Positions 6,695 through 63,755 of a stretch of DNA of 64,000 nt are shown here, in pieces. The notes beneath the pieces are model-generated. The model worked only from the letters and a program-made list of their open reading frames with translations, was not told where the DNA came from and searched no databases. The stretch is from Acidobacteriota bacterium (GTDB lineage: Bacteria > Acidobacteriota > Vicinamibacteria > Vicinamibacterales > 2-12-FULL-66-21). The translations under genes were made by a program, and so were the position numbers. The stretch lies in NCBI GenBank assembly GCA_016184105.1, contig JACPDI010000027.1, forward strand, positions 52,112 through 116,111. Reading direction: 5' to 3'. Each line of letters opens with the position of its first letter. Position 1 is the first letter of the stretch.

Positions 6695-6763
6695 GCCGCC
6701 GCCACCTTCCGTCTCCCGCGCGCGCAAAGGCGCGCGATCCCGCCCCGGACGAGGCGCGGAAGC

Positions 6764-20780: not shown

Positions 20781-20828
20781 GGCCTGGTGATGACGGGCGG
20801 CCGAAGAGACGGACCCGCGGAGAGATGT

Positions 20829-20936: not shown

Positions 20937-20952
20937 TGGCGAGCACTTTGCT
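20937..20952 (+). promoter_or_regulatory. sigma-54-type -24/-12 promoter candidate for the xrtA operon: TGGCGA-gcact-TTGCT
   Basis: Reads TGGCGAGCACTTTGCT. 23 nt upstream of ATG 20975, 50 nt upstream of the alternative GTG 21002 that has SD GGGAGAGG. Confidence 0.6.
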
Positions 20953-25565: not shown

Positions 25566-26607
25566 CGTCCTCCCGGCCGGCGGGACCGCTGCGCTGTCGC
25601 AGGACGCAACGCCGCGCCTGCGCATCGCGCGTGATTGCGCGCGGGAATACTGGCGCGCGCGGCGCGCCCCGCGATTCACCCGCGCGGACCCCGTCAGGCT
25701 GCAGCATTCGCTCGACGTGCTCGCCCGCGGCGGCCGCACGATGCTCGCCGACGATCCGGTGTTCCTGCTGGCATCGGGCTGGCGCACGGGCTCGACGCTC
25801 CTGCAGAGGGTGCTCGTGACCGACCCCGCGCTGCTGATGTGGGGGGAGCCGCTGGGTCGCATGGCCCTGCTGCCGCGCCTCGCGGAGATGCTCGCGGCAG
25901 TGGACGACCGCTGGCCGACGCCGGAATCCGCCACGCTACCCCAGGATCCGAGCGGGCTCGCGACGTCGTGGATCGCGAACCTCTATCCCGGCAATGGCGA
26001 CCTCCGTCAGGGGCTCCGCGCGCTGCTCGATTCCTGGCTTGCCGCTCCCGCTCGGCGCCGGGGATACGTGCGGTGGGGTGTCAAGGAGGTGCGGCTCGGC
26101 GCCGCGGAAGCGTGCGTGCTCCGATGGCTGTATCCCGCAGCTCGCTTCATCCTGCTGCTCCGGCACCCGTTTGACTCATATCGTTCGGCACGCAACTGGC
26201 GCCTCTACTCGCGATGGCCGGACGAAACGGTCGACTGCGCGGTCGCCTTCGCACGGCACTGGAACCGTCTCGCGGTCAGCTGGAACGCCCGCACGACCGG
26301 CCTCGACCCGCTGGTCATCCGGTACGAGGATCTCGTCTCGGGGAAGTTCGATTTCGAGCGCCTGGGGAATTCCCTGGATCTGCAGCTCGCACCCGAACGC
26401 GCTCTTTCGTCGCGCCCCGGCGTCAGGCGCACGAGACGCGAGCTCTGTTCCTACGAGCGGCGCCTCGTCGTGCGCGAGGCCGCCGCCGGGATGGAGGCGT
26501 TCGGCTACCTGCCAGACGGTTCGACTGCCGTGTGGAAACAACCCGGACTGCCTGCACAGTCTGGCAGCACCATTCATGGGGAGGAGCCTCTGAAATGTCC
26601 GGAATGA
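25543..26607 (+). CDS. sulfotransferase family protein (ST2)
   Basis: ORF 25282..26607 trimmed to ATG 25543. 5'-PSB-like FLLASGWRTGSTLLQRVL and 3'-PB-like LLLRHPFDSYRS. Confidence 0.75.
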   Translation: MGSSVRTDVLPAGGTAALSQDATPRLRIARDCAREYWRARRAPRFTRADPVRLQHSLDVLARGGRTMLADDPVFLLASGWRTGSTLLQRVLVTDPALLMWGEPLGRMALLPRLAEMLAAVDDRWPTPESATLPQDPSGLATSWIANLYPGNGDLRQGLRALLDSWLAAPARRRGYVRWGVKEVRLGAAEACVLRWLYPAARFILLLRHPFDSYRSARNWRLYSRWPDETVDCAVAFARHWNRLAVSWNARTTGLDPLVIRYEDLVSGKFDFERLGNSLDLQLAPERALSSRPGVRRTRRELCSYERRLVVREAAAGMEAFGYLPDGSTAVWKQPGLPAQSGSTIHGEEPLKCPE

Positions 26608-34124: not shown

Positions 34125-35539
34125 CAGGCCATCCCGATATTTCTGTGAAGCCGCTCGACCGCGGCAGCCGCACGGCGCCAGCCGAACTCGCGCTGCGCGC
34201 GCTTCCGCGCGGCATCACCCATGCGCGCCCGCAACCGCGGCGCGCCGACGAGGCGCTCCAGCGCCGACGCCAGCTCGCCGACGTCTCTCCCGCCGACCAG
34301 CAGGCCCGTGACCCCGTTCTCGATCGCCTCTGACACGCCGCCGGTGGCGCCGCCGATGGCCGGTTTCCCCGATGCGGCCGCTTCCAGGAAGACGATCCCG
34401 AATCCCTCGAAGTCGATCCCTTCGACGCGGTTGGGCAACAGGAACACGTCGCACGCGGCGAAATACGCCGGAAGCACGGCGTCATCGACCGCGCCGGCAA
34501 ACATCACACGGTCCTCAATCTCGAGCGCCTGCGCCATTTCCCGCAGCGCCACACGCTCGCGCCCGTCCCCGACGACGACGTACTTGATGCGCGGCGAGAC
34601 GTGCTTCAGCGCCGCGACGGCTCGAAGCGCGAGGTCGTGCCCCTTGCGCCGCTGCAGCCTGCCGACCGACAGGACGATGACCTCATCGGGCGCCCCGAGT
34701 GTCGGCCGGAGACCGATGCCCTGGTCCGCGTCGGGATGAAAGCGATCGGCATCCACGCCGGGATGCACGACATGGATGCGTTCGGCGGCGACGCCGAGGC
34801 CCTCGAGCAGCCCAGCCGTGTTGCGGCTGTTGGCGACAATCGCCGCGGCCCCCCGGTGCACGATCCGCATCAGCGCGGTCAGCTCGCGCGACGCGCGCGC
34901 GTACGCCAGCTCCTCGCCGTGGGTCCAGCACACATAGCGGGGACCCCCGAGGCGCGCCGCAAGCCACGCCGCAAGCCCTTCGGGGAGCACGCGCGCACAG
35001 TGGACGACGGGGGCCGCGTGACGGCTCAGCGCGCGGATGCGGGCAGCGACCGTGAGGTGATGCACCAGTGCGGATGGGCGCCGCACACCCCAGTCGCGCG
35101 CGGCGATCCGCCGCCGCAGAATTCTCATCTCCCCGTCGGAAACGTCTTCGACAGCTTGGCCGGCATCGGTCAGCACGTCGACGGGGATGCCGGCCAGGCG
35201 GCCGTACACGTTCTTCAACAGCACCCCGCTGCCGCCGATGGCGGGAGGAAAGAGCTCGCTGACCAGCAGAATCGGCGGCACGCCCGCGGAAGCGACCTGC
35301 CCCGCTGCGTGCCCGTCGGTGTGCCACACGATTTGCTCGACGCGAGACACTCTCCTCCGCGCTCCGGACGCAACCGAGCGGCACAGTAAACGCGGGAACC
35401 CCCGCCTGGGTGGCCGTCTTGCGGTGCGATACCGGGTGCTGCCCGGCATCGCCAATCCCGTGCCACCAGCTTCGGACGGGATTGCTGTCTGCGCTGCGGG
35501 CTCGATCCTTCGAGACGGCGAACTTTTGTCAGCCGTCAT
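34124..35539 (-). CDS. glycosyltransferase family 4
   Basis: ORF 34124..35539. The GT core starts near ILLVSELFPPAIGG, so the true start is probably 150-250 nt downstream of 35539. EGFGIVFLEAAASGKPAIG. Confidence 0.75.
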   Translation of the reverse strand: MTADKSSPSRRIEPAAQTAIPSEAGGTGLAMPGSTRYRTARRPPRRGFPRLLCRSVASGARRRVSRVEQIVWHTDGHAAGQVASAGVPPILLVSELFPPAIGGSGVLLKNVYGRLAGIPVDVLTDAGQAVEDVSDGEMRILRRRIAARDWGVRRPSALVHHLTVAARIRALSRHAAPVVHCARVLPEGLAAWLAARLGGPRYVCWTHGEELAYARASRELTALMRIVHRGAAAIVANSRNTAGLLEGLGVAAERIHVVHPGVDADRFHPDADQGIGLRPTLGAPDEVIVLSVGRLQRRKGHDLALRAVAALKHVSPRIKYVVVGDGRERVALREMAQALEIEDRVMFAGAVDDAVLPAYFAACDVFLLPNRVEGIDFEGFGIVFLEAAASGKPAIGGATGGVSEAIENGVTGLLVGGRDVGELASALERLVGAPRLRARMGDAARKRAQREFGWRRAAAAVERLHRNIGMA

Positions 35540-35569
35540 GGAGACTTCAGGCTTCCTGACGCGCTCCTT

Positions 35570-36292
35570 TCACGACCAGATGCGGTATCGGAGCGCGTAG
35601 GTCGCGATCGCCGCCCATTCGTAGGCCACGTACAGCCGGTCGTACCTTCGCGTCCACCATCTCGCAGGCCGGACCCCCGAGGGAGCCGGCTGGATCCCGA
35701 CGCTGACCGCCGCGCCGCCCAATTCAGACCGGAACACCGCGATGGCGCGCCGCGTGTGATAGGCCGAGGTCACGATGAGAAGCTGCCGGCCGCCGCTCCT
35801 CGCCAGCTCGGACGCCACGGTCCGTGCTTCGTCACGCGTGTTGCGCGCGAGCGCCGGGATGACGTGGATGCGGTCACGCCTGACGCCGTTCTGCACCAGC
35901 CACTCGACGCGTCCGTCCCCTTTCGTCGCCGGCGTCTCGATGGGATGGTTGGGCGTGGTCAGCAGCACCCTGGCGCGCCGGTACCGGAGGGCCATGCGGC
36001 GCGCTTCGGCCAGCCTCGCGCGCTCGTGGCTGGCCAGCACGACGATCGCGTCCGGATCCGACACGGGCACGGTCCGCACGAGCGCAACGCCGGCGTGTCG
36101 GCACGCGGCCACGGCGAGGGGCGCTGCGACGAGCAGCGCGATCCCCGCGATTGTCAGCCTCCGTCGCGCCCTGTGTCGCGCGCCCCGGCGAAAGTAGTCT
36201 GCCGAACGCGAGACATCCTGGTCGCAAAACGGTGACTTCTTCCTGCCTGGGGCTCCGCTCGCATCGCCAACGCGGGTGGCCTCGCTCTGCAT
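35570..36292 (-). CDS. DUF218 (YdcF/ElyC-like) membrane-anchored protein
   Basis: ORF 35570..36379 trimmed to ATG 36292. TM helix LTIAGIALLVAAPLAVAA. Signature LLIVTSAYHTRRA. Confidence 0.7.
   Translation of the reverse strand: MQSEATRVGDASGAPGRKKSPFCDQDVSRSADYFRRGARHRARRRLTIAGIALLVAAPLAVAACRHAGVALVRTVPVSDPDAIVVLASHERARLAEARRMALRYRRARVLLTTPNHPIETPATKGDGRVEWLVQNGVRRDRIHVIPALARNTRDEARTVASELARSGGRQLLIVTSAYHTRRAIAVFRSELGGAAVSVGIQPAPSGVRPARWWTRRYDRLYVAYEWAAIATYALRYRIWS
36197..36232. promoter_or_regulatory. candidate upstream activator site: GTCTGCC-gaacgcg-AGACAT-cctggt-CGCAAAACGG
   Basis: Same 36-nt architecture as 20829..20864. Starts 109 nt upstream of the -24 element at 36306. Lies within the 5' coding part of the divergent DUF218 gene. 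Confidence 0.5.
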
Positions 36293-36305: not shown

Positions 36306-36321
36306 TGGCCGCGTCTTTGCT
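36306..36321 (+). promoter_or_regulatory. sigma-54-type -24/-12 promoter candidate for the GT-C operon: TGGCCG-cgtct-TTGCT
   Basis: Reads TGGCCGCGTCTTTGCT. 27 nt upstream of ATG 36348. Confidence 0.6.
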
Positions 36322-45410: not shown

Positions 45411-46624
45411 AGATTCTCTACCTCACGCACCGGGTGCCGTACGCGCCGAACCGCGGCGACCGCCTGCGCGCGTTTCACGCGCTGCGCCTGCTGGCGGCCG
45501 AACACCAGGTCTCGCTGGTCTCGCTGGCGCACGGCCGGGAGGAGACGCGCGACCTCTCGGCGCTTCGACCGCTGGTGCGTGACCTGGAAATCGTGCGGGT
45601 GTCGCGTGCAGGGCAGGCCGTGCGGGCGGCACGCGGGCTCGCCACCGGCCGTCCGCTGACGCACTGCCTGCTCGACGCCTCCGGGATGCGGCCGGCGCTC
45701 GAGCGGATCGTGCGGCGCCGGCAGCCGGAGGTCGTCCTGGCGTACTGCTCGGGCATGGCGCGCTTCGCGGCGGAGCCGCCGCTTGCAGACATTCCGTTCG
45801 TGCTCGATCTCGTCGACGTCGACTCGCTGAAATGGGCGGAGCTGGCTCTCGCCACGCGCGGACCGCTCGGTCGAGTCTATGCCCGCGAGGCGCAGCGCCT
45901 GCGGGCGTTCGAGGCGCGTGCCAGCCTTGCCGCGCGCGCGGCGCTCGTCGTGAACGAGCGCGAGCGCGCGGCGCTCGTCCGCCTGGCGCCCGACGCGTAC
46001 GTGAGAATCGTGCCCAACGGCGTGGATCTGGAATCGTTCGCGCCTCCGGCGGATGTGCCCCGGCGACGCGACGTCGTCTTCTGCGGCGTCATGAACTACG
46101 GCCCTAACGCGGACGCCGCGCGGTGGCTGGCGCGCGACGTGTGGCCGCGCGTCCGGCGCGACGTGGCCGACGCGAGACTCCTGATCGTCGGCGCCGATCC
46201 AACCGCTGCCGTCCGCGCGCTGGCCTCGCCACGCCAGCAGATCGAGGTGACCGGCACGGTATCGGACGTCCGGCCGTATCTCTGGCAGGCGGTCGCTGCC
46301 GCGGCGCCGCTCGCCACGGCGCGCGGCGTTCAGAACAAGGTGCTCGAAGCCGTGGCCGCCGGAACCCCCTGCGTCGTCACGCCGCAGGTGGCGGAAGGCC
46401 TCCCCCACGAAGTGCTGCCCGCGTGCGTGCAGGCGGCCGACGCGGACGCATTCGCCGTCGCGCTTGCGCGCCTCCTCCACCTCGCCGACGACGAGCGTCG
46501 CGCGCTCGTCGCGGGCGCCGACCTGGCGTCGCTCGGCTGGCCGCAACGGCTGGCGGCGCTCCCGGCCATCCTTGAAGCCGCGGCCTTCAGCCGGGAGAGC
46601 GCCGCGGCATTGGGCCTCGCATGA
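45407..46624 (+). CDS. PEP-CTERM/EpsH1-system-associated sugar transferase-like glycosyltransferase
   Basis: Tail of ORF 45230..46624, starting at GTG 45407 (GTGA overlap). N-terminus VKILYLTHRVPYAPNRGDRLRAFHALRLLA matches my memory of that family. Confidence 0.8.
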   Translation: MKILYLTHRVPYAPNRGDRLRAFHALRLLAAEHQVSLVSLAHGREETRDLSALRPLVRDLEIVRVSRAGQAVRAARGLATGRPLTHCLLDASGMRPALERIVRRRQPEVVLAYCSGMARFAAEPPLADIPFVLDLVDVDSLKWAELALATRGPLGRVYAREAQRLRAFEARASLAARAALVVNERERAALVRLAPDAYVRIVPNGVDLESFAPPADVPRRRDVVFCGVMNYGPNADAARWLARDVWPRVRRDVADARLLIVGADPTAAVRALASPRQQIEVTGTVSDVRPYLWQAVAAAAPLATARGVQNKVLEAVAAGTPCVVTPQVAEGLPHEVLPACVQAADADAFAVALARLLHLADDERRALVAGADLASLGWPQRLAALPAILEAAAFSRESAAALGLA

Positions 46625-48429
46625 GCTGGGAACCGCTCGTCGCGCTCGCCCTCCTTGTCGCTATCCTTTATATATTGGGGCGGAACCTTGCGCCGCCCGA
46701 TGTCACGCTGGTTGGCGGGCTGACGGCGCTGATGTCGCTCAGCGCGTTCTCCGGCCGCTTCCCGACCCCCCGCGAGGCCGCCCTGGCGTTCGGCAACGAG
46801 GGACTGCTGACAGTCGGCGTCCTGTTCGTCATTGCCGCGGGGCTCACCGAAACGGGCGGAATCGCGCTGCTGACCGAACGCCTCCTGGGCCGTCCGGCCA
46901 CGCTCCTGCGCGCCCTCGTCCGGATGATCGTGCCGGTGGCCGTCACCAGCGCGTTCATCAACAACACGCCGGTCGTGGCGATGTTCGTGCCCGTCATCGG
47001 CGAGTGGTGCAAGAAGACACGCCAGAGCCCGTCGAAACTCTTCATTCCGCTCAGCTATGCCGCCATTCTCGGCGGGGTCTGCACGCTCATCGGCACCAGC
47101 ACGAACCTCGTCGTCCAGGGGATGCTGATCGAGGCGAACAAGACGGATCCCTCGATCCGGCCGTTCGGGATGTTCACGATTACGCCGCTCGGCCTGCCCG
47201 TCGCCCTCGCCGGGCTGGCGTACCTGGTCGTCCTCGCGCCGCGGCTGCTGCCCGATCGGCGACAGCCCGCCTGGAACGGCGACGAGACGCGACAGTACAC
47301 CGCGGAGCTGCTCGTCAGGCGCAACAGCCCGATCGTCGGAAAGACGGTCGAAGACGCCGGCCTTCGGCACCTGCCGGGCGCCTACCTGATGGCTATCCAG
47401 CGCGGCGCCGAATCGCTCGCCGGCATCGGGCCGGGGCAGCGCCTGCTCGCCGAGGATCGGCTGGTGTTTGTGGGCATCGTGGACTCGCTCGTCGAGCTGC
47501 AGAACGTCCGCGGGCTGTCGCCGCCGCTCGAGCACACGTACCGCGTGAACGATCGGCGCGAGGATCGGTGCCTGACCGAGGTGGTCGTCAGCCCGCGATG
47601 CCCTCTTGTCGGCAAGAGCATCCGGGAGGGGCAGTTCAGGAACCGCTACGACGCCGTGGTCCTGGCCGTGCACCGGCACGGCGAGCGTATCCAGGAAAAG
47701 ATTGGCGACATCGTGCTGAAAGTCGGCGACACGCTGTTGCTGCAGACCCGCCCATGGTTTCACCGGAAGCACCGGAACAACGGCGACTTCTTCCTCAGCT
47801 CCGCCGTCCCCGGATCCCGTCCGGTCCGCCACGACCGCGCCTGGATCGCCCTGGCGATCTTCGCCGCTCTGGTGGTCGCCGCGGCGTTCGAGGGGAGCCT
47901 CGGGTTGAGCCTGCTGAACATTGGACTGCTCGCGGCGGCGCTCATGGGTCTGACGCGCTGCTGCTCGGCCGAGCAGGCGCGGCGCAGCATCGACTGGTCG
48001 ACTCTCATCGCGATTGGCGCCGCGATCGGCATCGGGCGCGCGATCGAGTCAACAGGCCTCGCGGCCATCGCGGCGGCCACGCTCGTCGACGCGCTTCGCC
48101 CCGCCGGGCCGTGGGCCGTGCTCGCGGGAATCTACCTGCTGACGCTGGTCTTCACGGAAATCGTCACCAACAACGCCGCCGCCGCACTGGCTTTCCCGAT
48201 CGCGCTCGCCGCGGCGCGCGGCATGGGCGTGGACTTCGTGCCGTTTGCGGCAACGGTCATGGTGGCCGCATCGTCCGGGTTTGCGACGCCGCTCGGCTAC
48301 CAGACGCACATGATGGTGTACGGGCCGGGAGGATACCGGTTCGGCGATTTCGTCCGCATCGGCCTGCCGCTCGATCTGCTGCTGATGATCGTCACCGTGC
48401 TGGTGACACCCCTGGTGTTCCCCTTCTGA
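46621..48429 (+). CDS. SLC13/DASS-family anion transporter with two central TrkA-C (RCK_C) domains
   Basis: ORF 46621..48429 (ATGA overlap). TM-rich halves with SAFINNTPVVAMF and FTEIVTNNAAAAL hairpin motifs. Two soluble TrkA-C-like inserts (..GKTVEDAGLR.., ..GKSIREGQFR..). Confidence 0.85.
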   Translation: MSWEPLVALALLVAILYILGRNLAPPDVTLVGGLTALMSLSAFSGRFPTPREAALAFGNEGLLTVGVLFVIAAGLTETGGIALLTERLLGRPATLLRALVRMIVPVAVTSAFINNTPVVAMFVPVIGEWCKKTRQSPSKLFIPLSYAAILGGVCTLIGTSTNLVVQGMLIEANKTDPSIRPFGMFTITPLGLPVALAGLAYLVVLAPRLLPDRRQPAWNGDETRQYTAELLVRRNSPIVGKTVEDAGLRHLPGAYLMAIQRGAESLAGIGPGQRLLAEDRLVFVGIVDSLVELQNVRGLSPPLEHTYRVNDRREDRCLTEVVVSPRCPLVGKSIREGQFRNRYDAVVLAVHRHGERIQEKIGDIVLKVGDTLLLQTRPWFHRKHRNNGDFFLSSAVPGSRPVRHDRAWIALAIFAALVVAAAFEGSLGLSLLNIGLLAAALMGLTRCCSAEQARRSIDWSTLIAIGAAIGIGRAIESTGLAAIAAATLVDALRPAGPWAVLAGIYLLTLVFTEIVTNNAAAALAFPIALAAARGMGVDFVPFAATVMVAASSGFATPLGYQTHMMVYGPGGYRFGDFVRIGLPLDLLLMIVTVLVTPLVFPF

Positions 48430-52433: not shown

Positions 52434-52557
52434 CCTGGGGGCAGACTTCTTCCGCCTCAGCAGCGTCACGATCGGCATCTGACCGCCTCCGGGAAGACCA
52501 AAGTCTTCCGCGAAGGAGACAATCGCCTGGCGCGGTGTGGCCTGGCGCCCGGCTCCC

Positions 52558-53597: not shown

Positions 53598-54635
53598 CTA
53601 CGGAATGCACCGCACGATGTGCGGTCCAACCAGGCGGGTCACCGGCAGCGGCAGGCGTTTCCAGATCGCAACCGCGCGGCGGTATTTCGCGCTGGCGGGG
53701 CTGAAGTCAGGCAGCGCGGCGCCGCCGACCTGGAGGTACTCCCAGTGGAGCGCGTCCGGGACGGCCCCCCACTGTTTCTTGAACTCGAAGTGGCTGTCGC
53801 CGATGGTGGACCGGCCGAAATCGAACTGCCGCGCGTGCGCGTCGACGGCCCGCCCGATGGCCGCCCAGTAGAGCATCTGGTTCGCACACCACTCGCGGCC
53901 GCGGCGCAGGGCCGACGCCCACGGCATCTCCACGCGGTCGCGGTACGTGATCGTGATGCCCGCCGCCAGCGGCTCTCCGCCGCGGCTGACCACGATCACC
54001 GCCGCGCGCGGGCCAACCTCCTGCAGGACTTCTTCGCAGAGGTTGCGGCCGTACACCGGCGTGCCCAGGTCGCGCATGTTGGTCGCGAAGATCTCATAGA
54101 AGGCGTCGAGCAGCTCCCGCCCTCCGGCGGCAACGTCCAGGCCGCTCTTCTCCGACTTGCGAATCTGGTTCCGCAGCTTGCGGTCGAACAGCCCGAACAG
54201 CGCGTCGCGGGTGGACGGCAGCGCCAGCTCCATCGCCACCTTGTGGGCGCGGAACGGCAGCGAGCCGAATCGGCGCGCGCGGTGGCGCAGCTCCACGTGG
54301 CTGTAGCCCCCGGCGCGGGCCAGCGCGCCGGCCGCGCCGAGCAGCGCGTCGGCCGTGCGCGCGGCGGACGCCAGCACGCCGCCGTAATTCACGAACGGCA
54401 GCGACACGACGAAGCGCCCGAAGACCGGCGACCGCATTGCGACGAGCGGCAGCACCCCGGCCATCACGCCGCCGGTCCTTGCCACCAGATATCTGGTCTG
54501 GTGCCCGAACGCCCGCGCGATGATCGCCCGCCACTCCCAGCGGTGGTAGACGGCGGCCTCAGGGTGCCCGTCGACGAACGCGTCCCATTCCTCGCGGCAG
54601 GTGGCCTCGGTCACGGAGAGCGGCGCGTCAGACAT
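53598..54635 (-). CDS. FemAB-family protein, PEP-CTERM-system-associated type
   Basis: ORF 53598..54635. EEWDAFVDGHPEAAVYHRWEWRAII..SLPFVNYGG..FEFKKQWGA, typical of the FemAB-like acyl/aminoacyl transferase fold. Confidence 0.8.
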   Translation of the reverse strand: MSDAPLSVTEATCREEWDAFVDGHPEAAVYHRWEWRAIIARAFGHQTRYLVARTGGVMAGVLPLVAMRSPVFGRFVVSLPFVNYGGVLASAARTADALLGAAGALARAGGYSHVELRHRARRFGSLPFRAHKVAMELALPSTRDALFGLFDRKLRNQIRKSEKSGLDVAAGGRELLDAFYEIFATNMRDLGTPVYGRNLCEEVLQEVGPRAAVIVVSRGGEPLAAGITITYRDRVEMPWASALRRGREWCANQMLYWAAIGRAVDAHARQFDFGRSTIGDSHFEFKKQWGAVPDALHWEYLQVGGAALPDFSPASAKYRRAVAIWKRLPLPVTRLVGPHIVRCIP

Positions 54636-56292
54636 CGGTGTCGCTCCTGAGCAGCCAGTAGTCCTTCATCATCAGGAACCGGCCCATCACCAGCGCATCG
54701 ATGGCGGACGAGAACGTCGTCCGGATCGCGTCGCGCGGCGCACACGCGGTCGGCTCGCCGTGGGCGGTCAGCGGCGTGTTGATCAGCCCGGGCACGCCGG
54801 TGCGCGTGCGATGGATGCGCAGCAGCTCGGCCAGCTCGGGCGCCTGCGCCGGGTCGACGGTGTGGACGGTCATGGCGTTGCGCGCGTCGAGCGCCGCGCG
54901 CAGCAGCGGCCGCGCCTCCGGACGAACGGTTCCCCGCAGCAACATGAAGGGGGACCGCAGCGGCACGTCCAGGCACGCGTCCGCCGCGGCGTCGGTCAGC
55001 GACACGGGCAGCCACGCCTCGTCGGTGGGACGACCGAGATAGTGGGTGAGGTTCTCGCGCGCGTAGGGTCGCGACGGATCGCAGAGAATGCTGCGGCTGC
55101 CCAGCGAGCGCGCACCGAAATCGAGCGCGCCCTGGAACCAGGCGATCGTCTTTCCGGACTCGAGCAGGCGCGACACGCGCGTCAGCAGCCGTTCCCATGC
55201 AGGCTCGTAGACGTAGTCGAGACGGCAGTTCTCGATCGTCTGCTTCATCTCCGGTTCCGAGAACGCGGGACCGAGCGACAGCCCGTCGAACCGCGATGCC
55301 GCGGAATCGGTGGCCACCGCGGCGCCGATCGCGCCGCCCGCTTCTTCGGGCACGGGCGCCACCCAGACCCGATCCCCGAGCTCGAGGCGGACCGCGGTGT
55401 TCACGGCGTCCGATCCGAACACACTGCCCCCGAGCCCAACCGCGTCGACGTGGAGCAGCGCCGCGGCCGCGTGACACAGGCGCGCCGCCAGTTCGTGGAC
55501 GCGAATGCAGAAGCCGGCTGCCAGGTCCCGCCGTCGCTGGCGCACACGCGCGTGGAGGCTGTCGGCCTGCGCCAGGTCGCCGATTCCCGACGCCGCCCCC
55601 GCCACGAGCGCGTCGAGGCGCGATTCGTCGAAGTAGAAGCCCGGCTGCGCGCTCCAGCCGATCACCGTACCGAAGGCCTGCGCGAACGTGGCGTCCCCGG
55701 CGGAGCCCAACCGCTCGAGCGCATCGAGCGCCCCGTCGCCGGCGGCGCAGCCAAGCCGCGCGGCCAGGTCGGCAGCCGCCGCGATGAGACGCTCCACGCC
55801 GCCAATCGCCATCACGCGCCCGATGACGGGGCCATCCTTGTAGAACAACGACCCGCGGCGCGCGACTCCATCGACAATGACGATGGCCATGCGCTCGGCA
55901 GATGAAGAGGCCGCGACCTGCAGCGCCTGCGCGCGAAGCCCCTCGACCAGCCACGCGGGCTTTTCGTCGAGGGCATCCGCCAGGGCGAGACGCGCGTGGC
56001 CCGTGTTGAGCCGCGCCCGCAGGCGCAGGCCGCGGCGCAACGCCCGCACGTCGGCCGCGCCGGCGGCCCCGCGGTCGGCGAGCGCGATGGCCGTCACGGC
56101 GTGCGCAGGCAGGTGCGCGCGTTCCAGGCACGCGGCCAGCGCCGCCATCGGCACGCCGGGGCTCCGGACGCCAGCGCCCGCAGCGTTTCTCGACACGCTG
56201 CACTCCGACACCGCGGCGACGACCTGGCCGTTCACCGACAGCGCCGCGGCGGCCTCGCCGCTCCGGCCGCCGATGCCCAGCACGACACCCAT
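54628..56292 (-). CDS. carbamoyltransferase-family (NodU/CmcH-like) paralog with a degenerate N-terminal catalytic domain
   Basis: ORF 54628..56292. N-terminus MGVVLGIGGRSGEAAAALSVNGQVVAAV and C-terminal FGARSLGSRSILCDPS resemble NodU. The HHxxH metal motif present in the neighbour is absent. Confidence 0.7.
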   Translation of the reverse strand: MGVVLGIGGRSGEAAAALSVNGQVVAAVSECSVSRNAAGAGVRSPGVPMAALAACLERAHLPAHAVTAIALADRGAAGAADVRALRRGLRLRARLNTGHARLALADALDEKPAWLVEGLRAQALQVAASSSAERMAIVIVDGVARRGSLFYKDGPVIGRVMAIGGVERLIAAAADLAARLGCAAGDGALDALERLGSAGDATFAQAFGTVIGWSAQPGFYFDESRLDALVAGAASGIGDLAQADSLHARVRQRRRDLAAGFCIRVHELAARLCHAAAALLHVDAVGLGGSVFGSDAVNTAVRLELGDRVWVAPVPEEAGGAIGAAVATDSAASRFDGLSLGPAFSEPEMKQTIENCRLDYVYEPAWERLLTRVSRLLESGKTIAWFQGALDFGARSLGSRSILCDPSRPYARENLTHYLGRPTDEAWLPVSLTDAAADACLDVPLRSPFMLLRGTVRPEARPLLRAALDARNAMTVHTVDPAQAPELAELLRIHRTRTGVPGLINTPLTAHGEPTACAPRDAIRTTFSSAIDALVMGRFLMMKDYWLLRSDTDV

Positions 56293-56294
56293 GG

Positions 56295-58124
56295 CTACCG
56301 CCGCACCGACGGGTGCGCCACGAGGAAGTCCCCGATGGCCAGGTAATCGAGGTTGCCCGCCAGGAACGCCCGCACCGCATCATCGGGCGTGCAGACGATC
56401 GGCTCCTCGTGCATGTTGAAGCTCGTGTTGATGAGCGAGGGAATACCGGTGAGGGCGTAATACTCGGAGAGGATCCGATGGAAGCTCGGGTTCGATCGGC
56501 TCGTCACCAGCTGGGGGCGCGCCGTGCCGTCCACGTGCACGGCCGCCGGGCAGTCCGTCTTCATCCGTTCCGTGCAGTCGAAGGTAATCGTCATGAACTG
56601 AGCGGCGTAGTCGGCGCCATCCACCCGCTGGTAGCACTCGTGGCGGTGCTCGTAGAGCGTCGCGGGCGCGAACGGCATGAACTCGGTCCGGCCGAGCCGC
56701 TGGTTGAGCCACTGGTTCACCGCCGGTTCCTGCGCGTGGTACAGAATCGACCGGTTCCCCAGCGCCCGCGGACCGTACTCCATCCGCCCGTTGAAGCGCG
56801 CCACCACCTTGCCCGCCGCCGCCAGGCTGGCGATCTTCTTCTCGATTGGCGAGTAGCGGTCGAACGGCAGTCCCGCGCTGCGCAGCGACGCGGCGATCTC
56901 GGTCTCGCCGTAGCACGGACCGAAGAACACGTCGTCGAGGGCGGATCCGCGGAAGCCGTTGCCGGCAAACGCGAGAAGGCCCGCACCGGTGCCGCAGCCG
57001 CCGTCGCCCATGTGGGGGTGGATGAAGATCGCGTCCACTTCGGGAATCTCGCGGAGCCGCTGGTTCAACTTCACGTTCGCCGTGACGCCGCCCGAGAGCA
57101 CGAGGTGCCGGAGCCCCGTCTTCTGAAGATAGTGGCGGACGAAGCCCACCGACACGTCCTCGAGCACGCGCTGGTACGCGGCCGCGACGTCCTGCATCGG
57201 AAAGTCGCTGGCGAGCATGCGCACGAAGAACACGTTGTTGCTCTCGATGATGCGGAAGGCGCCGGCGAGGATCTCGAACCGCGAGCGCACGACGTCGCCG
57301 AGGACGGACGGATCGCCGTAGGCCGCGAGCCCGACGATCTTCCCCTCGTGGCGGCACGGCCGGAACCCGAGGCCCGAGGTGACCGACTCGTAGAAGGTGC
57401 CCAGCGAGTGCGGGTACTCGAGGTCGAACAGGCGTTCGATGCGTCCCTCCCGTCCCACGCTGACGGACCCGGCCAGGCCGGAGCCGTAGCCGTCGAGCGT
57501 GACCACCAGCGCCTCGTCGAACCCCGACGTGTAGAACGCGTTGGCTGCGTGGCTCTCGTGGTGCTCGACCCGGCGCAGGCGGTCGCGCAGGCCCAGTTCG
57601 TCGAGGGCCGTCTCGAGCTCCGCCTGCCACTGCATGTGGTACGCGGTGGCCGCCTTCCCCCACTGGCTCAGCGCGCGCTTCGCCACGTTCCTGGACACGA
57701 CGCCGTCGACGGACGCCACCCGGTATGCGAGCCGCTTCATCAGCGGTTTTTCCTTGCGTTGATTCGGCTGCCGCAGCCCCGGCACCGGGTCGCGGCGCGC
57801 CGGCACGCGCCGGCGCGCGTCGTCGATCAATTGCTGGACCGGCGCGGGCTCCGTGCGCTGCAGCCGCTCCCGCTCGCGCGCGATATTGCGCTCGAACAGG
57901 CGCGTCTCCTCTTCCCACGTGAGGAACGGGTAGGTGACCACGTCGATCTCGGACGGATCCGTGCCCGTGCAGTCGAGCGCGCCCTGCAGCGCGCGCCACG
58001 GAAATCCGCTCTGCAGCTTCTGACGGGTGAAGCGCTCTTCGCCGGCCGCGAACAGGATGCGTCCGTCCTCGAGCAGGGTCACGGTGGAGTCGGTGTCGAG
58101 CGGTGAAATCGCCAGTACCTTCAT
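56295..58124 (-). CDS. carbamoyltransferase (NodU/CmcH/TobZ family)
   Basis: ORF 56295..58271 trimmed to ATG 58124. MKVLAISPLDTDSTVTLLEDGRILFAAGEERFTRQK, VEHHESHAANAF, YGPRALGNRSILYHA, INTSFNMHEEPIV. Confidence 0.85.
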   Translation of the reverse strand: MKVLAISPLDTDSTVTLLEDGRILFAAGEERFTRQKLQSGFPWRALQGALDCTGTDPSEIDVVTYPFLTWEEETRLFERNIARERERLQRTEPAPVQQLIDDARRRVPARRDPVPGLRQPNQRKEKPLMKRLAYRVASVDGVVSRNVAKRALSQWGKAATAYHMQWQAELETALDELGLRDRLRRVEHHESHAANAFYTSGFDEALVVTLDGYGSGLAGSVSVGREGRIERLFDLEYPHSLGTFYESVTSGLGFRPCRHEGKIVGLAAYGDPSVLGDVVRSRFEILAGAFRIIESNNVFFVRMLASDFPMQDVAAAYQRVLEDVSVGFVRHYLQKTGLRHLVLSGGVTANVKLNQRLREIPEVDAIFIHPHMGDGGCGTGAGLLAFAGNGFRGSALDDVFFGPCYGETEIAASLRSAGLPFDRYSPIEKKIASLAAAGKVVARFNGRMEYGPRALGNRSILYHAQEPAVNQWLNQRLGRTEFMPFAPATLYEHRHECYQRVDGADYAAQFMTITFDCTERMKTDCPAAVHVDGTARPQLVTSRSNPSFHRILSEYYALTGIPSLINTSFNMHEEPIVCTPDDAVRAFLAGNLDYLAIGDFLVAHPSVRR

Positions 58125-59181: not shown

Positions 59182-60518
59182 CGCGCCGCCCTCTCGACCG
59201 CGACCAGCGGGGCGCGGCGTCCGGTGGCGACATACGTGAATCCCAGCGATCGCACCCGCGCCGGATCCAGCACGTTCCGCACGTCCACGATGACGGCGTC
59301 CCGCATGACTCCCTGCAGGCGGTGCAGGTCGAGGCTGCGGAATTCGTTCCACTCGGTCATGATGACCACGGCATCGGCGCCATCGGCCGCCTCGTAGGCG
59401 GACTCCGCGTACGTCACCGCGTCCGCCTCGATGACCGCCGCCGCCGACGCGCAGGCCACCGGATCGAACGCCCGTACGATCGCGCCTTCCTCGACCAGCC
59501 GGATGCACAGATGGATCGCCGGCGACTCGCGGACGTCGCTCGTGTTCGGCTTGAACGCGAGCCCGAGCACCGCGATCGTCCGGCCCGCGAGTCCCGCCAC
59601 CGCTGCGGCGACCTTCGCCACGACGGCCTCCCCCTGCGCGATGTTGACGGCGATGGCCGACTCGACGATCCGCAGGGGCACGCCGTATCGGCGTCCGAGC
59701 GTGGCGAGCGCCCTCGTGTCTTTCGGAAAACACGATCCACCGAAGCCGGGGCCTGCGTGAAGGAACTTCGGCCCGATCCGCTTGTCGAGCCCCATCGCCT
59801 TCGCGACGACGTGCACGTCCACGCCGACCTCGTCGCAGAGGTTCGCGATCTCGTTCACGAAGCTGATCTTCGTCGCCAGGAACGCGTTGCACGCGTACTT
59901 GATCAGCTCCGCCGTCTCCGGATCGGTGCAGACAACCGGCGTGTCGATCAGGTACAGCGGTCGATACAGGTCGCGCATGATTGCGGACGCCTGCGCGCTG
60001 TTCGACCCGATGACCACGCGGTCCGGGCGCATGAAATCGCCCACGGCGGACCCCTCGCGGAGGAACTCGGGATTCGAGACGACGTCCACCCGCGCCGGCT
60101 GCAGCAGGTGCGCGCGCACGAGCTCCGACACGCGGCGGTTGGTGCCGACCGGCACGGTGCTCTTGATGGCGATGACGTGGTAGCCGTCCAGCTCCCGCGC
60201 GACCTCCACGATCGCGCGGTCCAGTTGCGTGAGATCGGGGCTTCCCGCGCCGTCGTCCGGCGTCCCGACCGCCAGGATGATGACGCGCGTGCCGGCGACG
60301 CCGTCCTTCAGCCGATGCGAAAACCGCAGGCGGCCGGCGGCGACATTGTGGTGCACCAGCTCGGAGGCGCCGGGCTCGTGAAACGGGAGCGCGCCGCGGC
60401 AGAGCCCTTCGATCCGGTCCGCGTCCGCATCGACGCACGTCACCGTGTGCCCGAAGTCGGCCAGGCACGCGCCCGTGACCAGTCCGACGTATCCCGCGCC
60501 GATCACCCCCACATTCAT
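59178..60518 (-). CDS. ugd: UDP-glucose 6-dehydrogenase
   Basis: Tail of ORF 59178..61433, starting at ATG 60518. MNVGVIGAGYVGLVTGACLA (Rossmann), GFGGSCFPKD (catalytic Cys), AFKPNTSDVRESP. Confidence 0.9.
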   Translation of the reverse strand: MNVGVIGAGYVGLVTGACLADFGHTVTCVDADADRIEGLCRGALPFHEPGASELVHHNVAAGRLRFSHRLKDGVAGTRVIILAVGTPDDGAGSPDLTQLDRAIVEVARELDGYHVIAIKSTVPVGTNRRVSELVRAHLLQPARVDVVSNPEFLREGSAVGDFMRPDRVVIGSNSAQASAIMRDLYRPLYLIDTPVVCTDPETAELIKYACNAFLATKISFVNEIANLCDEVGVDVHVVAKAMGLDKRIGPKFLHAGPGFGGSCFPKDTRALATLGRRYGVPLRIVESAIAVNIAQGEAVVAKVAAAVAGLAGRTIAVLGLAFKPNTSDVRESPAIHLCIRLVEEGAIVRAFDPVACASAAAVIEADAVTYAESAYEAADGADAVVIMTEWNEFRSLDLHRLQGVMRDAVIVDVRNVLDPARVRSLGFTYVATGRRAPLVAVERAAR

Positions 60519-61387
60519 GCGGCCCCCGCTCTTACGGCTGCGAGCCCCACCGCGGCACTGACCGTGTCGAACCGGAATTCCGCCAGCAGGCGGCGCAGGC
60601 GGGACTCGGTCCGGTGAAGGTTTCGATAATGGCGAAGGCGCGACAGCCAGGGCGCCGCGAACCTGGGCTGCGCCGGATCGATCTCCCACGGGTGCACGTA
60701 AAACACGGCGGGCTTCCGCTCGACCAGATTGAGGCGGCGAATGCCGAACGACGTCCAGGCGTACGGCAGCATGCGGAAGTATCCGCCCCCGCCGATGGGA
60801 AGATTGACGGCGCCGCAGCGGATCGTCGACCCGGGCACCTCGAGGAGCGTGCCGCCGGGGCGCCGGACCGTGTGAGGATGCCGCGGCGCCGAGGGCAGGC
60901 CGTAGCGATCGTGATGGATCGGAAACACACTGGCGTCGTAGACGAACCCTTCTTCGATCAGGATGTCCAGCGCCCATAGCGAAGCCGCGGTCACCGAGTA
61001 GCTCGGCGCGCGGTACCCGAGAACCGGCATCGAAGCCGCGGATTCGATCGCGTACCGCGACCGCCGCACGTCCGCGCGGAATTCCTCCGGCGTCATCGCG
61101 TAAATCAGGCGGTGCGAATAACCGTGCGACGCCAGCTCGTGCCCCGCGGCGGCGATGCGGCGGATCAGGGCGGGGAATCGCTCGGCCACCCACCCGAGGA
61201 CGAAGAAGGTCGCGCGCACGCGGTGGTCTGCAAACATCCGCAGCAGCCGATCCGTGTTGGCGCAGACGCGGCTTTCGAGCCGGTCCCACTGGTGCCGGCC
61301 CACCACGTCGTCGAACGCGCTGACCTGGAAGTAGTCCTCGACGTCCACCGTCATGGCGTTGGTCACGCCCGTCGCCTGCGAGTGCAT
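60515..61387 (-). CDS. polysaccharide deacetylase, PEP-CTERM/XrtA-locus subfamily
   Basis: ORF 60515..61387. NAMTVDVEDYFQVSAF..ATFFVLGWVAERFP..GHELASHGYSH. Alternative start ATG 61354 gives the usual N-terminus. Confidence 0.85.
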   Translation of the reverse strand: MHSQATGVTNAMTVDVEDYFQVSAFDDVVGRHQWDRLESRVCANTDRLLRMFADHRVRATFFVLGWVAERFPALIRRIAAAGHELASHGYSHRLIYAMTPEEFRADVRRSRYAIESAASMPVLGYRAPSYSVTAASLWALDILIEEGFVYDASVFPIHHDRYGLPSAPRHPHTVRRPGGTLLEVPGSTIRCGAVNLPIGGGGYFRMLPYAWTSFGIRRLNLVERKPAVFYVHPWEIDPAQPRFAAPWLSRLRHYRNLHRTESRLRRLLAEFRFDTVSAAVGLAAVRAGAA

Positions 61388-61402
61388 TCAAGGCGCCCGG
61401 GC

Positions 61403-61418
61403 TGCGACCTGCATGCCA
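61403..61418 (-). promoter_or_regulatory. internal sigma-54-type -24/-12 candidate: TGGCAT-gcagg-TCGCA
   Basis: Reverse complement of 61403..61418. In the 129-nt gap between the sugar transferase and deacetylase genes. Confidence 0.5.
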
Positions 61419-61498
61419 ACGCGAGCGGCGCAAAAGTGGCGGGTTCGGAGGACTTCGCGGTCACGGCACCCCCTGCGGCACCTCAAGTCCGCGCGCCC

Positions 61499-61515
61499 GC
61501 CGACTTTCGTCTGCC
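61499..61515. promoter_or_regulatory. inverted repeat GGCAGAC-gaaa-GTCGGC (read on the minus strand), candidate activator site
   Basis: Plus strand reads GCCGACTTTCGTCTGCC. The GGCAGAC start is exactly 97 nt upstream of the -24 T at 61418, the same as 20840 to 20937 at the xrtA promoter. Confidence 0.5.
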
Positions 61516-61516
61516 A

Positions 61517-62896
61517 TCAGGCCGCGCCGCGGCGGAGGAGGACGACCTTGACCGTCTTCAGCATGATGAACAGGTCGAGCGCGAGGGAGGTGTTCTTGAT
61601 GTAGTACAGGTCGTACTGGAGTTTCTGCAGCGCGTCCTCGACGCTGGCGCCGTACGAGTACGACACCTGCGCCCACCCCGTCACCCCCGGCTTGACGACG
61701 TGTCGCTGGCCGTAAAACGGGATGTCCCTCGTCAGCGTCCCGACGAACTCGGGCCGCTCGGGGCGCGGGCCGACGAAGCTCATCTCGCCCACGAGCACGT
61801 TCCAGAGCTGCGGCAGTTCGTCCACGCGGGTGAGCCGCATCCACCGGCCCACGCGCGTGACGCGGTCGTCGTCGGGGCGGGCCCAGACGGCCCCCGAGGC
61901 GGCCTCCGCATCCACGCGCATCGAACGGAACTTGTGGACGGTGAACACGACGCCGTTCTGGCCGACGCGCTGCTGATGGTAGAAGACAGGGCCGCGCGAC
62001 GTCGCGCGGATCGCGATGGCCGCGGCCGCCATCAGCGGCAGCGCGAGCAGCAGCCCGAAGAGGGACGCCGCCACGTCGAACGCGCGTTTGAGGTGAAGGA
62101 CCAGGCGCTTGTTGTGGAAGCCGTCGGCAAACAGGAGCCAGCTCGGACGCAGGTTCTCGACCGCGATCTTTCCGGTGTACTTCTCGTAGAGGGACGCGAG
62201 ATGATCGAACGCGACGCCGCGCAGCTTCATGTCGAGCAGGCGGTCCATCGGCAGCCTGCCGCGCGCATCCGCGAGGCTGATGACCACCCGATCGACGACC
62301 GCGTTCCGCACGATGTCCGGGATGTCGTCGATCGTCCCGATGACGCCGGGGTTGAACAGGCGCGTGCCGACCAGGGCGGGGTCGCTGTCGACGAAGCCGA
62401 CGATCTCGACGCCCAGCTCGCGCCGCGAGTGCAGTTCCTTCGCCAGGCTGACCGCGGCGGCGCCGGTGCCCACGAGCAGCACCCGCTCGCGCGGGCGGAC
62501 ACGCCCGACGAGCCACTCGAACGCGAGCCGCCATCCCGTGACGGCGGAAATCACGAACGTCACCGCGATCGCGAAGACGCCGCGCCCGATGATCAGATCG
62601 GGGAACCAGAAGTACAGCGTCGCCAGCACCAGCGACGTGACGCCCAGCGCCTGCACCGTGCGGACAAACAGCTCCCGCCGATCCGAGATGAGACGCAGGT
62701 CGTAGAGGTCCGAGAAGTACAGGCACACCTGGCAGATGAACGCGATCACCAGCCCCTTGGCCAGCGCGTGCTCCTGCAGGATGACGATGCCGGCCCGCGA
62801 GCCCGACCGCACGTAGACCGCCAGGACGATCGCCCCGAGAATGAGCGCGGTCTCGAAGACCACGAGCGCGACAACCCGGGGGTTGGGACGCTGCAC
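61517..62896 (-). CDS. polyprenyl-phosphate glycosyl-1-phosphate transferase (priming sugar transferase, PEP-CTERM-system type)
   Basis: ORF 61517..62983 trimmed to GTG 62896, 1 nt after the upstream stop (SD GAGAGG). N-terminal TM helices, Rossmann-like LLVGTGAAAVSLA, C-terminal bacterial sugar transferase core KFRSM..DELPQLWNVLVGEMSFVGPRP. Confidence 0.85.
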   Translation of the reverse strand: MQRPNPRVVALVVFETALILGAIVLAVYVRSGSRAGIVILQEHALAKGLVIAFICQVCLYFSDLYDLRLISDRRELFVRTVQALGVTSLVLATLYFWFPDLIIGRGVFAIAVTFVISAVTGWRLAFEWLVGRVRPRERVLLVGTGAAAVSLAKELHSRRELGVEIVGFVDSDPALVGTRLFNPGVIGTIDDIPDIVRNAVVDRVVISLADARGRLPMDRLLDMKLRGVAFDHLASLYEKYTGKIAVENLRPSWLLFADGFHNKRLVLHLKRAFDVAASLFGLLLALPLMAAAAIAIRATSRGPVFYHQQRVGQNGVVFTVHKFRSMRVDAEAASGAVWARPDDDRVTRVGRWMRLTRVDELPQLWNVLVGEMSFVGPRPERPEFVGTLTRDIPFYGQRHVVKPGVTGWAQVSYSYGASVEDALQKLQYDLYYIKNTSLALDLFIMLKTVKVVLLRRGAA

Positions 62897-62897
62897 G

Positions 62898-63755
62898 TCA
62901 GCCTCTCGCGAGTCCGCGGCCGGATTGACTGTGCGCGAGGTAACTGGCGTAGTAGGACGCCCGGGGCGCCGCCTCCGCCGCACGGTTCAGGACGACGCCC
63001 ACGATCCGCCCGCGCCCCACGGTATCGATGGTGCGGCGGACGAGCGTGTAGGGCGTCGCCGCCGCCTGCACGACGAGCACGATCCCGTCGACCATCGCCG
63101 CGAGCAGCGCCGCATCCGTGATGAGCGTCACCGGCGGCGTGTCGATGATCACCCATTCGAACGTCTCCCGCGCTTCGTCGATGACCGTGCGCATGCGGCC
63201 CGACGTGAGCGCGCTCATCGGATCGGGGTTCGGGGCGCCGGCCGCGAGCAGGGACAGCATCGGCGAGATCGGCGTGATCGTCAGCTTCTGCTCGGTGTCG
63301 CTGTTCAGCCCTTCGCTCAGGCCCGCCACGTTGGGCAGCGCGAACAGCTCGTGCAGCGTCGGCCGGCGCAAGTCGGCGTCGATCAGCAGCACCCGCCGCC
63401 GGTAGGACTCACTGAGCGTGAGCGCCAGGTTGGTCGCCGTCAGCGTCTTCCCCTCGCCGGGCTGGGCGCTGGCCACCATCAGGACCCGCGTGCCCTTCTG
63501 GGTCTGGGCGTGGTGGAGCGTCGCGCCAAGCCGGCGGAACTGCTCCAGGGAGGCGCTGGGGATCCTGGAGGAGATCACCACCTTGTCGAGGAGCGGGTCG
63601 GCAAGGCGGGACAGAAGCTGCCCCGCTCCCGCCTCCAGCGGGGGCGGTGGCGGCGGCGCGACGCGCTCGAAATTCCAGGGCGGCGGCTCGGCGCCGCCGG
63701 GAGGCGGCGCGGGCGGGCGGCCCGCGCGGGTCAATGCGTCCTCGATTCGGCTCAT
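62898..63755 (-). CDS. chain-length-determinant protein tyrosine kinase (EpsG/CpsD-like BY-kinase)
   Basis: ORF 62898..63755. MSRIEDALTRAG.., Walker A SAQPGEGKT, Walker A' LLIDADLRRP, Walker B VIIDTPP, C-terminal Tyr cluster SYYASYLAHS. Confidence 0.85.
   Translation of the reverse strand: MSRIEDALTRAGRPPAPPPGGAEPPPWNFERVAPPPPPPLEAGAGQLLSRLADPLLDKVVISSRIPSASLEQFRRLGATLHHAQTQKGTRVLMVASAQPGEGKTLTATNLALTLSESYRRRVLLIDADLRRPTLHELFALPNVAGLSEGLNSDTEQKLTITPISPMLSLLAAGAPNPDPMSALTSGRMRTVIDEARETFEWVIIDTPPVTLITDAALLAAMVDGIVLVVQAAATPYTLVRRTIDTVGRGRIVGVVLNRAAEAAPRASYYASYLAHSQSGRGLARG

Follow-up and report, generated by a model that had tools for sequence, protein, structure and literature searches.

The closest described counterpart of the control elements considered here is the proteobacterial PEP-CTERM box, in which a 17-nt motif 1 ending in TTTACA is separated by a spacer of 62.8 nt on average from a sigma-54 motif, and which was described together with PrsK, PrsR and PrsT (Haft et al. 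2006, PMC1569441). Motif 1 is sometimes repeated and has been proposed as an activator site, the box has been reported only in Proteobacteria (PMC1569441), and RpoN dependence of a PEP-CTERM gene has been shown in Aquincola (PMC9850573). The present analysis concerns a 64,000-nt stretch of contig JACPDI010000027.1 from an Acidobacteriota bacterium (Vicinamibacterales), referred to throughout as the window, which has 69.7% GC and carries an XrtA/PEP-CTERM exopolysaccharide locus. Within its core eps operon, a 129-nt gap separates the genes for the priming glycosyltransferase and the XrtA-system polysaccharide deacetylase, and this gap most likely holds a sigma-54 promoter together with two upstream activator-binding palindromes. 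Coordinates of all features are collected in Table 1.

Like the PEP-CTERM box, the module in the gap and its counterparts elsewhere in the window consist of a -24/-12 element preceded by an upstream motif that is sometimes repeated, they stand before XrtA/PEP-CTERM exopolysaccharide genes, and the locus includes a gene for a PrsT-like TPR lipoprotein. Unlike it, the upstream motif here reads GGnnGAC-N4-GTCnnCC, the host is an acidobacterium, and the modules also precede biosynthetic genes and xrtA rather than mainly genes for PEP-CTERM proteins. TTTACA occurs three times in the window (1.5 expected), with no copy upstream of the candidate promoters, and PrsK (TIGR02916) was not found among the called window proteins that were scanned. 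The window's only bacterial enhancer-binding protein (bEBP) differs from PrsR (TIGR02915), scoring 242.4 bits against a cutoff of 502.6 and having no receiver domain. The XrtA/PEP-CTERM system here is not proteobacterial; its deacetylase and its XrtA have their closest relatives in uncultured Acidobacteriota, mostly Vicinamibacterales, at 56-70% amino-acid identity. Copies of the control module occur at several points of the locus and in related bacteria, and the module seems to be undescribed; a full-text literature search of incomplete coverage returned no description of such a module for Acidobacteria, which is absence of evidence only.

The 129-nt gap and its candidate promoter

In a gene map drawn from third-position GC, neighboring genes on the same strand lie -8 to +16 nt apart and the 129-nt gap is the sole sizeable one; downstream of the deacetylase, genes are tightly packed as far as FemAB at 53598. 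Read on the minus strand, the gap opens with GGCAGAC (61515..61509), which begins 2 nt past the stop codon of the priming transferase (TGA, 61519..61517) and is followed by gaaa and GTCGGC (61504..61499), and it carries TGGCAT-gcagg-TCGCA at 61418..61403, 97 nt separating 61515 from 61418. The distal dyad of the gap has two mismatches against GGCAGAC-N4-GTCTGCC, and the proximal dyad follows at a spacing of 22 bp, placing the two starts at -97 and -75 relative to the -24 T. As in sigma-54 promoters, the element TGGCATgcaggTCGCA has GG and GC doublets 10 nt apart and faces a gene, lying 16 nt before the ATG at 61387 and 49-50 nt before that at 61354. Its score is the highest of the sigma-54 matrix among 128,000 positions scanned in the window, and the pattern TGGCAY-N5-TYGCW occurs twice in the window against 0.18 expected, both times in intergenic DNA and facing the downstream gene. 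Other intergenic, correctly oriented matches to the matrix precede xrtA, the PEP-CTERM gene, the TPR gene and several more genes.

An initial annotation of the window had described an internal promoter module in this gap, built as at xrtA and marked by GGCAGAC exactly 97 nt from the -24 element. Its motifs, coordinates and distances (97 nt in the gap and at xrtA, 98 nt from GCGAGAC at 36208 to 36306, and 86 nt at the TPR lipoprotein gene) all check out on the sequence, and a sigma-54-type match with dyads of the same build as at xrtA and at several other candidate promoters of the window is indeed present in the gap. We consider it probable that the gap is an internal, enhancer-dependent sigma-54 promoter, with a sensor-less bEBP encoded at the left edge of the window as its most likely activator; we infer from the sequence the use of the site by sigma-54, the role of the dyads as activator sites and the identity of the protein that binds them.

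In the mechanism that we propose, RNA polymerase with sigma-54 would bind TGGCAT-N5-TCGCA (61418..61403), and a dimeric activator of the bEBP class would bind the two 18-bp dyads, whose centers lie some 88 and 66 nt before the -24 T; their 22-bp spacing would put both on one face of the helix. This protein would oligomerize, loop to the closed complex and open it using ATP, with transcription starting near 61392. Such an internal promoter would add regulated expression to upstream read-through for the distal genes, namely the deacetylase (first), a UDP-glucose dehydrogenase, a gene of unknown function, two carbamoyltransferases and FemAB. The same module of dyads and -24/-12 element would drive xrtA, the PrsT-like TPR gene, the PEP-CTERM protein gene and others as one regulon, and the activator would be the sensor-less bEBP encoded at 3..1211 on the minus strand.

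A tandem 18-bp dyad upstream of -24/-12 elements

GGCAGAC is not over-represented in the window as a whole (16 copies, against 13.6 +/- 3.8 in dinucleotide shuffles). In a scan of all 7-mers it is the most strongly enriched in intergenic DNA, with 12 of its 16 copies in 8.2% of the bases (p = 9e-11), a clearly positive outcome, within the window, for the comparison of coding with noncoding placement; among all 6-mers, GCAGAC ranks first (17 of 42 copies intergenic). The intergenic fraction comes from an approximate gene map with approximate start codons, and a conservative count leaves eight copies clearly noncoding, three ambiguous (3199, 13397 and 63891) and five coding, which by our own arithmetic gives p ~6e-5 at 10% noncoding.

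An expectation-maximization (EM) motif search on relatives only, soil Acidobacteriota of the Vicinamibacterales, trained on 16 regions (15 upstream of xrtA and the deacetylase upstream region of the relative locus L017), yielded an 18-nt dyad, nGGnGAC-TTTA-GTCAnCC, that mostly begins 108-126 nt upstream of the -24 T and often has a second copy 22 bp downstream. Applied to the window, the matrix from these relatives finds 14 distinct sites at a threshold of 8 bits. Eleven are intergenic, two of these being in the gap, and another falls in the final 200 nt of the gene that stands before the promoter of the PEP-CTERM gene. The 11 intergenic dyads compare with 1.6 expected and were matched in none of 200 dinucleotide shuffles of the intergenic DNA, and pure chance is unlikely because the matrix never saw the window. 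In 92 relative loci outside the training set, 57 dyads are intergenic and 26 coding where 25% of the DNA is intergenic (p = 1e-16). The exact 7-mer GGCAGAC is mostly not found in relatives; an early impression of non-conservation arose because only this 7-mer was sought, and the de novo search showed that the arms differ between species. The functional unit is predicted to be not the 7-mer but the 18-bp dyad GGnnGAC-N4-GTCnnCC; in this genome GGCAGAC forms one of its arms. The element singled out in the initial annotation is part of a larger unit that was recovered from relatives alone. As a rejected candidate, the bare cores GAC-N4-GTC and GTC-Nx-GAC showed slight or no intergenic enrichment (4 of 18, p = 0.055), indicating that the arms matter. 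The dyads have the attributes of bEBP upstream activator sites, in that they are symmetric, often paired, enriched 60-150 nt upstream and conserved in relatives.

The position of the dyads was examined in 113 acidobacterial loci pooled with the window. Among 121 promoter/dyad pairs, 53 have the dyad at -150..-60 (15.7 expected), a 22-bp spacing separates 8 of 10 neighboring dyad pairs, and dyad starts cluster at about -142, -120, -98 and -76 relative to the -24 T, with a periodicity peak at 22-24 bp. Positions scatter by several nucleotides across loci, and many sites lie off this lattice. The relative L161 reproduces the numbers of the window (-99/-77 and -120/-98), and in L017 GGCAGAC lies 96 nt upstream of TGGCGA, ahead of the deacetylase gene. 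The distance of 97 nt was measured both in the gap and at xrtA as had been claimed, but GGCAGAC supplies the left arm of different dyads, the distal one in the gap and the proximal one at xrtA; the shared value is therefore one preferred node of a loose lattice of about 22 bp and not a fixed rule. The further copies that had been placed upstream of other -24/-12 candidates do exist, at 3199, 12991 (CGCAGAC), 17041 (CGCAGAC) and 52440 as well as at 9097 and 34113, but those at 3199, 12991, 17041 and 9097 are not at activator-site positions. A lattice of 11-bp half-sites in alternating orientation was also considered; it fits 52481..52520 and 35517..35545, and the 22-bp tandem-dyad description was adopted because the dyad at 6678 has the opposite orientation at the same positions.

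Candidate activator and alternative readings

The product of the bEBP gene consists of an AAA+ core and lid only, with no N-terminal sensory or receiver domain, and a complete protein of 370 aa that is 99% identical to it is available (P0001). The best PDB matches of its AAA+ domain are ZraR, NtrC1 and FleQ, and it also aligns to PspF; Walker A reads GESGVGKE and Walker B DEVGE. By eye, the C-terminus shows a pattern (RGLQHTRGSYKLLLQLFNM..DYKRLL) that could correspond to a Fis-like helix-turn-helix. Orthologs (56-64% identity) occur in XrtA/exopolysaccharide neighborhoods: divergent from xrtA in L112; beside a PEP-CTERM gene and a long TPR gene in L163; beside a Wzz/tyrosine-kinase operon and GGDEF genes on the contig of P0008; and immediately before the core eps operon in L166, where there are two of them, accompanied by a sigma-54 promoter and a GGCAGACttttGTCTTCG dyad. 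In L016 the ortholog lies behind its own dyad and promoter, which suggests that the activator may activate its own gene. By its co-location with the modules, the sensor-less bEBP is the likely binder of the dyads. A search for its family returned at least 8,000 proteins at E <= 1e-30, most of them probably generic sigma-54 activators; the top matches listed, of 365-385 aa, have the same domain plan.

Compared with classical bEBP enhancers (NtrC at glnAp2, ZraR, DctD, NifA), the modules share paired dyads about 80-150 nt upstream of the -24/-12 element, predicted to lie on one helical face, and the AAA+ domain is closely related to those of ZraR and NtrC1; they differ in the dyad sequence and in an activator with neither an N-terminal sensory or receiver domain nor a recognized HTH_8, and with a GSFTDA loop. 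The plan of an AAA+ core with a C-terminal DNA-binding part and no N-terminal regulatory domain resembles that of PspF and HrpR/HrpS and implies control in trans by a partner protein. Unlike in those systems, no PspA- or HrpV-like partner was identified and the neighbors are GGDEF, PilZ and small receiver proteins; identity to PspF is also lower than to ZraR or NtrC1. FleQ and VpsR are likewise bEBP-family regulators of exopolysaccharide operons and turn up among the PDB matches through their AAA+ domains, and enzymes and receptors of cyclic di-GMP (c-di-GMP) are encoded nearby here. At exopolysaccharide promoters FleQ and VpsR work for the most part without sigma-54, and the boxes that they bind are different; every module here, by contrast, has a -24/-12 element.

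Genes of c-di-GMP signaling adjoin the activator gene, namely a GAF-GGDEF cyclase (1777..3258, minus strand) and a receiver-PilZ protein (11840..12511, plus strand). PilZ or GGDEF genes also lie near it in relatives (L166, 9676..10032; contig of P0008), and small receiver-only genes are convergent with it in L161, L163 and L165. The c-di-GMP parts and the receiver-only proteins may be trans-acting controllers of the sensor-less activator, and c-di-GMP control in this locus is pure speculation.

More broadly, it may be that in Acidobacteriota of the Vicinamibacterales type the whole XrtA/PEP-CTERM exopolysaccharide system is under an undescribed sigma-54 regulon, with a sensor-less, auto-activated bEBP that has a GSFTDA loop and an unclassified C-terminal DNA-binding domain, acting at tandem GGnnGAC-N4-GTCnnCC dyads on a lattice of about 22 bp, in portable modules inserted at different points of the core eps operon according to lineage; judged from sequence, the balance for this extended proposal is even. 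Acidobacteriota are among the most abundant soil bacteria and their exopolysaccharides matter for soil aggregation and survival, and to our knowledge almost nothing is known about the regulation of exopolysaccharides in this phylum. If real, the module would provide a concrete cis-element, a candidate activator family and a predicted regulon, and would mean that sigma-54 control of the XrtA/PEP-CTERM system exists outside Proteobacteria, with different parts.

Several observations speak against an internal sigma-54 promoter worked by this bEBP. The -12 element of the gap reads TCGCA and not TTGCW, its 14.7 bits come from a weight matrix that approximates the published consensus, the predicted leader would be only about 5 nt with translation from the ATG at 61387, and the proximal dyad is weak at 9.7 bits. 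Helical phasing, with its peak at 22-24 bp, is only moderately supported, with Rayleigh p ~0.003 for all dyads, which are non-independent points, and p 0.03-0.05 with one value per promoter. In the activator, the loop GSFTDA keeps F and T of the canonical GAFTGA and changes A to S and G to D; the C-terminal 106 residues have no Pfam match at E <= 10, and the putative tie of the protein to the dyad is one of co-location and enhancer-like geometry. Of the 25 relatives with placeable copies of both the transferase and the deacetylase gene, about 19 have the two overlapping or separated by no more than 15 nt. The GSFTDA loop is common to the two family members P0001 and P0002, and the family members listed carry no DNA-binding Pfam domain.

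Because most relatives leave no room between these two genes, the gap promoter is not conserved, and the gap module is a lineage-specific acquisition; a few relatives have 33-82 nt at this junction, and aligning the gap with them gave no meaningful homology. Modules are found at other points of the operon. In L008 and L017 one lies ahead of the deacetylase gene, which is not preceded by the transferase there; in L010, L023 and L024 one immediately follows the deacetylase, in L010 and L024 with a variable cassette of 3.7 kb between it and FemAB; and in L166 TGGCGACTTCCTTGCA is preceded at 132 nt by the GGCAGACttttGTCTTCG dyad (18.6 bits), which stands before a bEBP paralog and the whole Wza-to-FemAB operon. 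This suggests that internal promoter modules, if real, move about within an otherwise conserved operon.

The absence of the gap from most relatives, together with the lack of overall GGCAGAC enrichment and the imperfect -12 element, would also suit a lineage-specific spacer without promoter function, its motifs having arisen by chance or been left over from a recombination junction, with read-through as the only source of transcripts of the distal genes. We regard this as improbable, since the top sigma-54 score of the window falls, in the right orientation, in these 129 nt, two dyads stand there at 22-bp spacing on lattice positions (-97/-75) according to a matrix blind to the window, and equivalent internal modules occur in L008, L010, L017, L023 and L024. 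The placement of the distal dyad 2 nt past a stop codon raises another reading, in which a short stem with a GAAA loop forms in the RNA and this GNRA-capped hairpin (GAC-GAAA-GUC) terminates, attenuates or stabilizes the upstream transcript. A role of this kind is very hard to credit: no terminator-like site, no T-run after the dyad and no sigma-70-type promoter were detected in the gap, its RNA fold is not more stable than that of shuffled sequence (z = +0.60), a covariance-model search gave no Rfam family match, and the same dyads elsewhere stand upstream of genes and in divergent promoter regions, not after stops.

If the gap does hold a promoter, the dyads might still bind a regulator other than the sensor-less bEBP, in which case the bEBP would work from solution or at sites other than these. 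Candidates are a LuxR/NarL-type response regulator (1144..1773) and a classical NtrC-type regulator encoded elsewhere: palindromes of 18-20 bp suit LuxR-type dimers, the helix-turn-helix of the response regulator resembles that of the EpsA regulator of XrtB systems (C-terminal match to TIGR03020, E = 5.5e-11, below cutoff), and NtrC-type enhancer-binding proteins with HTH_8 are encoded a few kb from the sensor-less protein in L161 and L165, and the C-terminus of the latter has no recognized DNA-binding family. The stereotyped place of the dyads, 60-150 nt upstream of -24/-12 elements, is a hallmark of bEBP enhancer sites; the sensor-less bEBP co-occurs with the module in L016, L112 and L166, where no LuxR-type gene was noted; and the putative Fis-like pattern, as judged by eye, would supply a DNA-binding part. 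On these grounds we hold a different binder to be rather unlikely and favor the sensor-less bEBP at the dyads.

Further modules and content of the locus

Table 1. Positions of the candidate control elements and associated genes in the window, with corresponding modules of relatives; negative offsets are relative to the -24 T.
Feature	Position	Strand	Remarks
Sensor-less sigma-54 enhancer-binding protein gene	3..1211	-	PF00158, 208.7 bits; probable start Met ~956; 3' end cut by window edge
XrtA-system polysaccharide deacetylase gene	60515..61387	-	TIGR03006, 399 bits (cutoff 276); start ATG 61387 or ATG 61354
XrtA/PEP-CTERM priming glycosyltransferase gene	61517..62983	-	TIGR03013, 488.9 bits (cutoff 393)
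Distal 18-bp dyad of gap, GGCAGACgaaaGTCGGCG	61498..61515	-	Start 97 nt upstream of T of TGGCAT; 11.2 bits, relatives-only matrix
Proximal 18-bp dyad of gap, CGCGGACttgaGGTGCCG	61476..61493	-	Start -75; 9.7 bits, relatives-only matrix
Sigma-54-type -24/-12 element of gap, TGGCATgcaggTCGCA	61403..61418	-	14.7 bits
Putative xrtA activator region, dyads CGGAGAGatgtGTCTGCC (-119) and GGCAGACattaCTCACGC (-97)	20818..20857	+	Dyads of relatives at same offsets
xrtA sigma-54-type promoter, TGGCGAgcactTTGCT	20937..20952	+	GGCAGAC at 20840, 97 nt from 20937
Two dyads, CGGCGAAagtaGTCTGCC (-120) and GCGAGACatccTGGTCGC (-98)	36186..36225	+	Upstream of 36306 promoter
Sigma-54-type promoter, TGGCCGcgtctTTGCT	36306..36321	+	PMT_2-family membrane glycosyltransferase-like gene, ATG 36348
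Near-perfect dyad, GGCAGACtcctGTCTGCG (GGCAGAC-tcct-GTCTGCG)	6678..6695	+	86 nt upstream of TGGCCGggtctTTGCC
Candidate promoter, TGGCCGggtctTTGCC	6764..6779	+	Would serve PrsT-like TPR lipoprotein gene (TIGR02917 partial match)
Strongest dyad of window and weaker dyad	17081..17098; 17107..17124		20.1 bits (first dyad); between divergent sigma-54-type promoters 16999 (-) and 17186 (+)
Perfect palindrome, GGAAGACcaaaGTCTTCC	52492..52509		Between divergent candidate promoters 52433 (-), TGGCCGgcggtTTGCG, and 52558 (+), GGGCGAcactcTTGCA; half-sites flank at 11-bp steps
Two dyads 22 bp apart	35517..35556		15.7 and 9.7 bits; upstream of weak -24/-12 candidate 35465 (-)
Sigma-54-type promoter, TGGCACccgccTCGCA	9062..9077	+	GTCTGCC at 8974..8980, from 88 to 82 nt upstream of T
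Sigma-54-type promoter, TGGCAGccgctTTGCT	5802..5817	+	Upstream of PEP-CTERM protein gene
Dyad, CGGCGACtgaaGTCGGCC	5654..5671		-148 of 5802 promoter
L161, dyads	-99/-77 and -120/-98		Two divergent promoters, TGGCGAGCGCCTTGCT and TGGCCAGGTCCTTGCG
L163, dyads	-142/-120		Promoter CGGAAGGGTCTTTGCT
L008, dyad	-121		Promoter TGGCGATATGCTTGCA
L017, dyads	-118/-96		Second dyad starts with GGCAGAC; promoter TGGCGACGTGCTTGCA

The probable start of xrtA is the GTG at 21002, with GGGAGAGG directly before it, and YGG-N10-TTGCT is conserved 45-70 nt upstream of the xrtA start in about 19 metagenomic relatives. At 52481..52520 and 35517..35556 half-site orientation alternates at 11-bp steps (GACCGCC tccg GGAAGAC caaa GTCTTCC gcga AGGAGAC), so that dyads in two registers could overlap between divergent promoters. 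Two weak GGCAGAC dyads lie outside activator-site positions, one at 9097..9114, at +35 of the 9062 candidate and overlapping a GTG at 9114, and the other at 3199..3216, some 43 nt away from where the GGDEF gene may start; both may be chance occurrences or have another role. Downstream of the gene for the PEP-CTERM protein, a GC-rich hairpin and the GTTTGTCTT that follows it (6578..6612) look like an intrinsic terminator parting this gene from the next module of dyad and promoter. Between the activator gene and that of the LuxR-type regulator, 864..1143 is a short AT-richer patch with the only promoter-region TTTACA (1092) and a TGGCAT-N5-GTACA that has no -12 GC.

The locus encodes xrtA, a PEP-CTERM protein, PrsT-like TPR proteins, several XrtA-system glycosyltransferases, an amidotransferase, FemAB and an O-antigen-ligase-like protein, along with sulfation genes, a GGDEF protein, the receiver-PilZ protein and, at the left edge, the sigma-54 bEBP. 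The TPR lipoprotein gene (6803..8948) is seemingly split: an open reading frame at 6616/6803..8268 corresponds to the first half of TIGR02917, and a second one in another frame (8244..8948) carries on TPR-like sequence, which could reflect a frameshift, a sequencing error or two overlapping genes. The deacetylase and FemAB genes flank a cassette (54628..58124, minus strand) made up of a UDP-glucose dehydrogenase gene and two NodU-like carbamoyltransferase genes that lie side by side; at the position of this cassette L016 has nothing and L010 and L024 have a different 3.7-kb cassette. The locus also has genes for a sulfotransferase (16140..17165, minus strand), a bifunctional sulfate adenylyltransferase/APS kinase (26214..28370, plus strand) and a DASS-family anion transporter (46621..48429, plus strand), which together suggest that its polysaccharide is sulfated.

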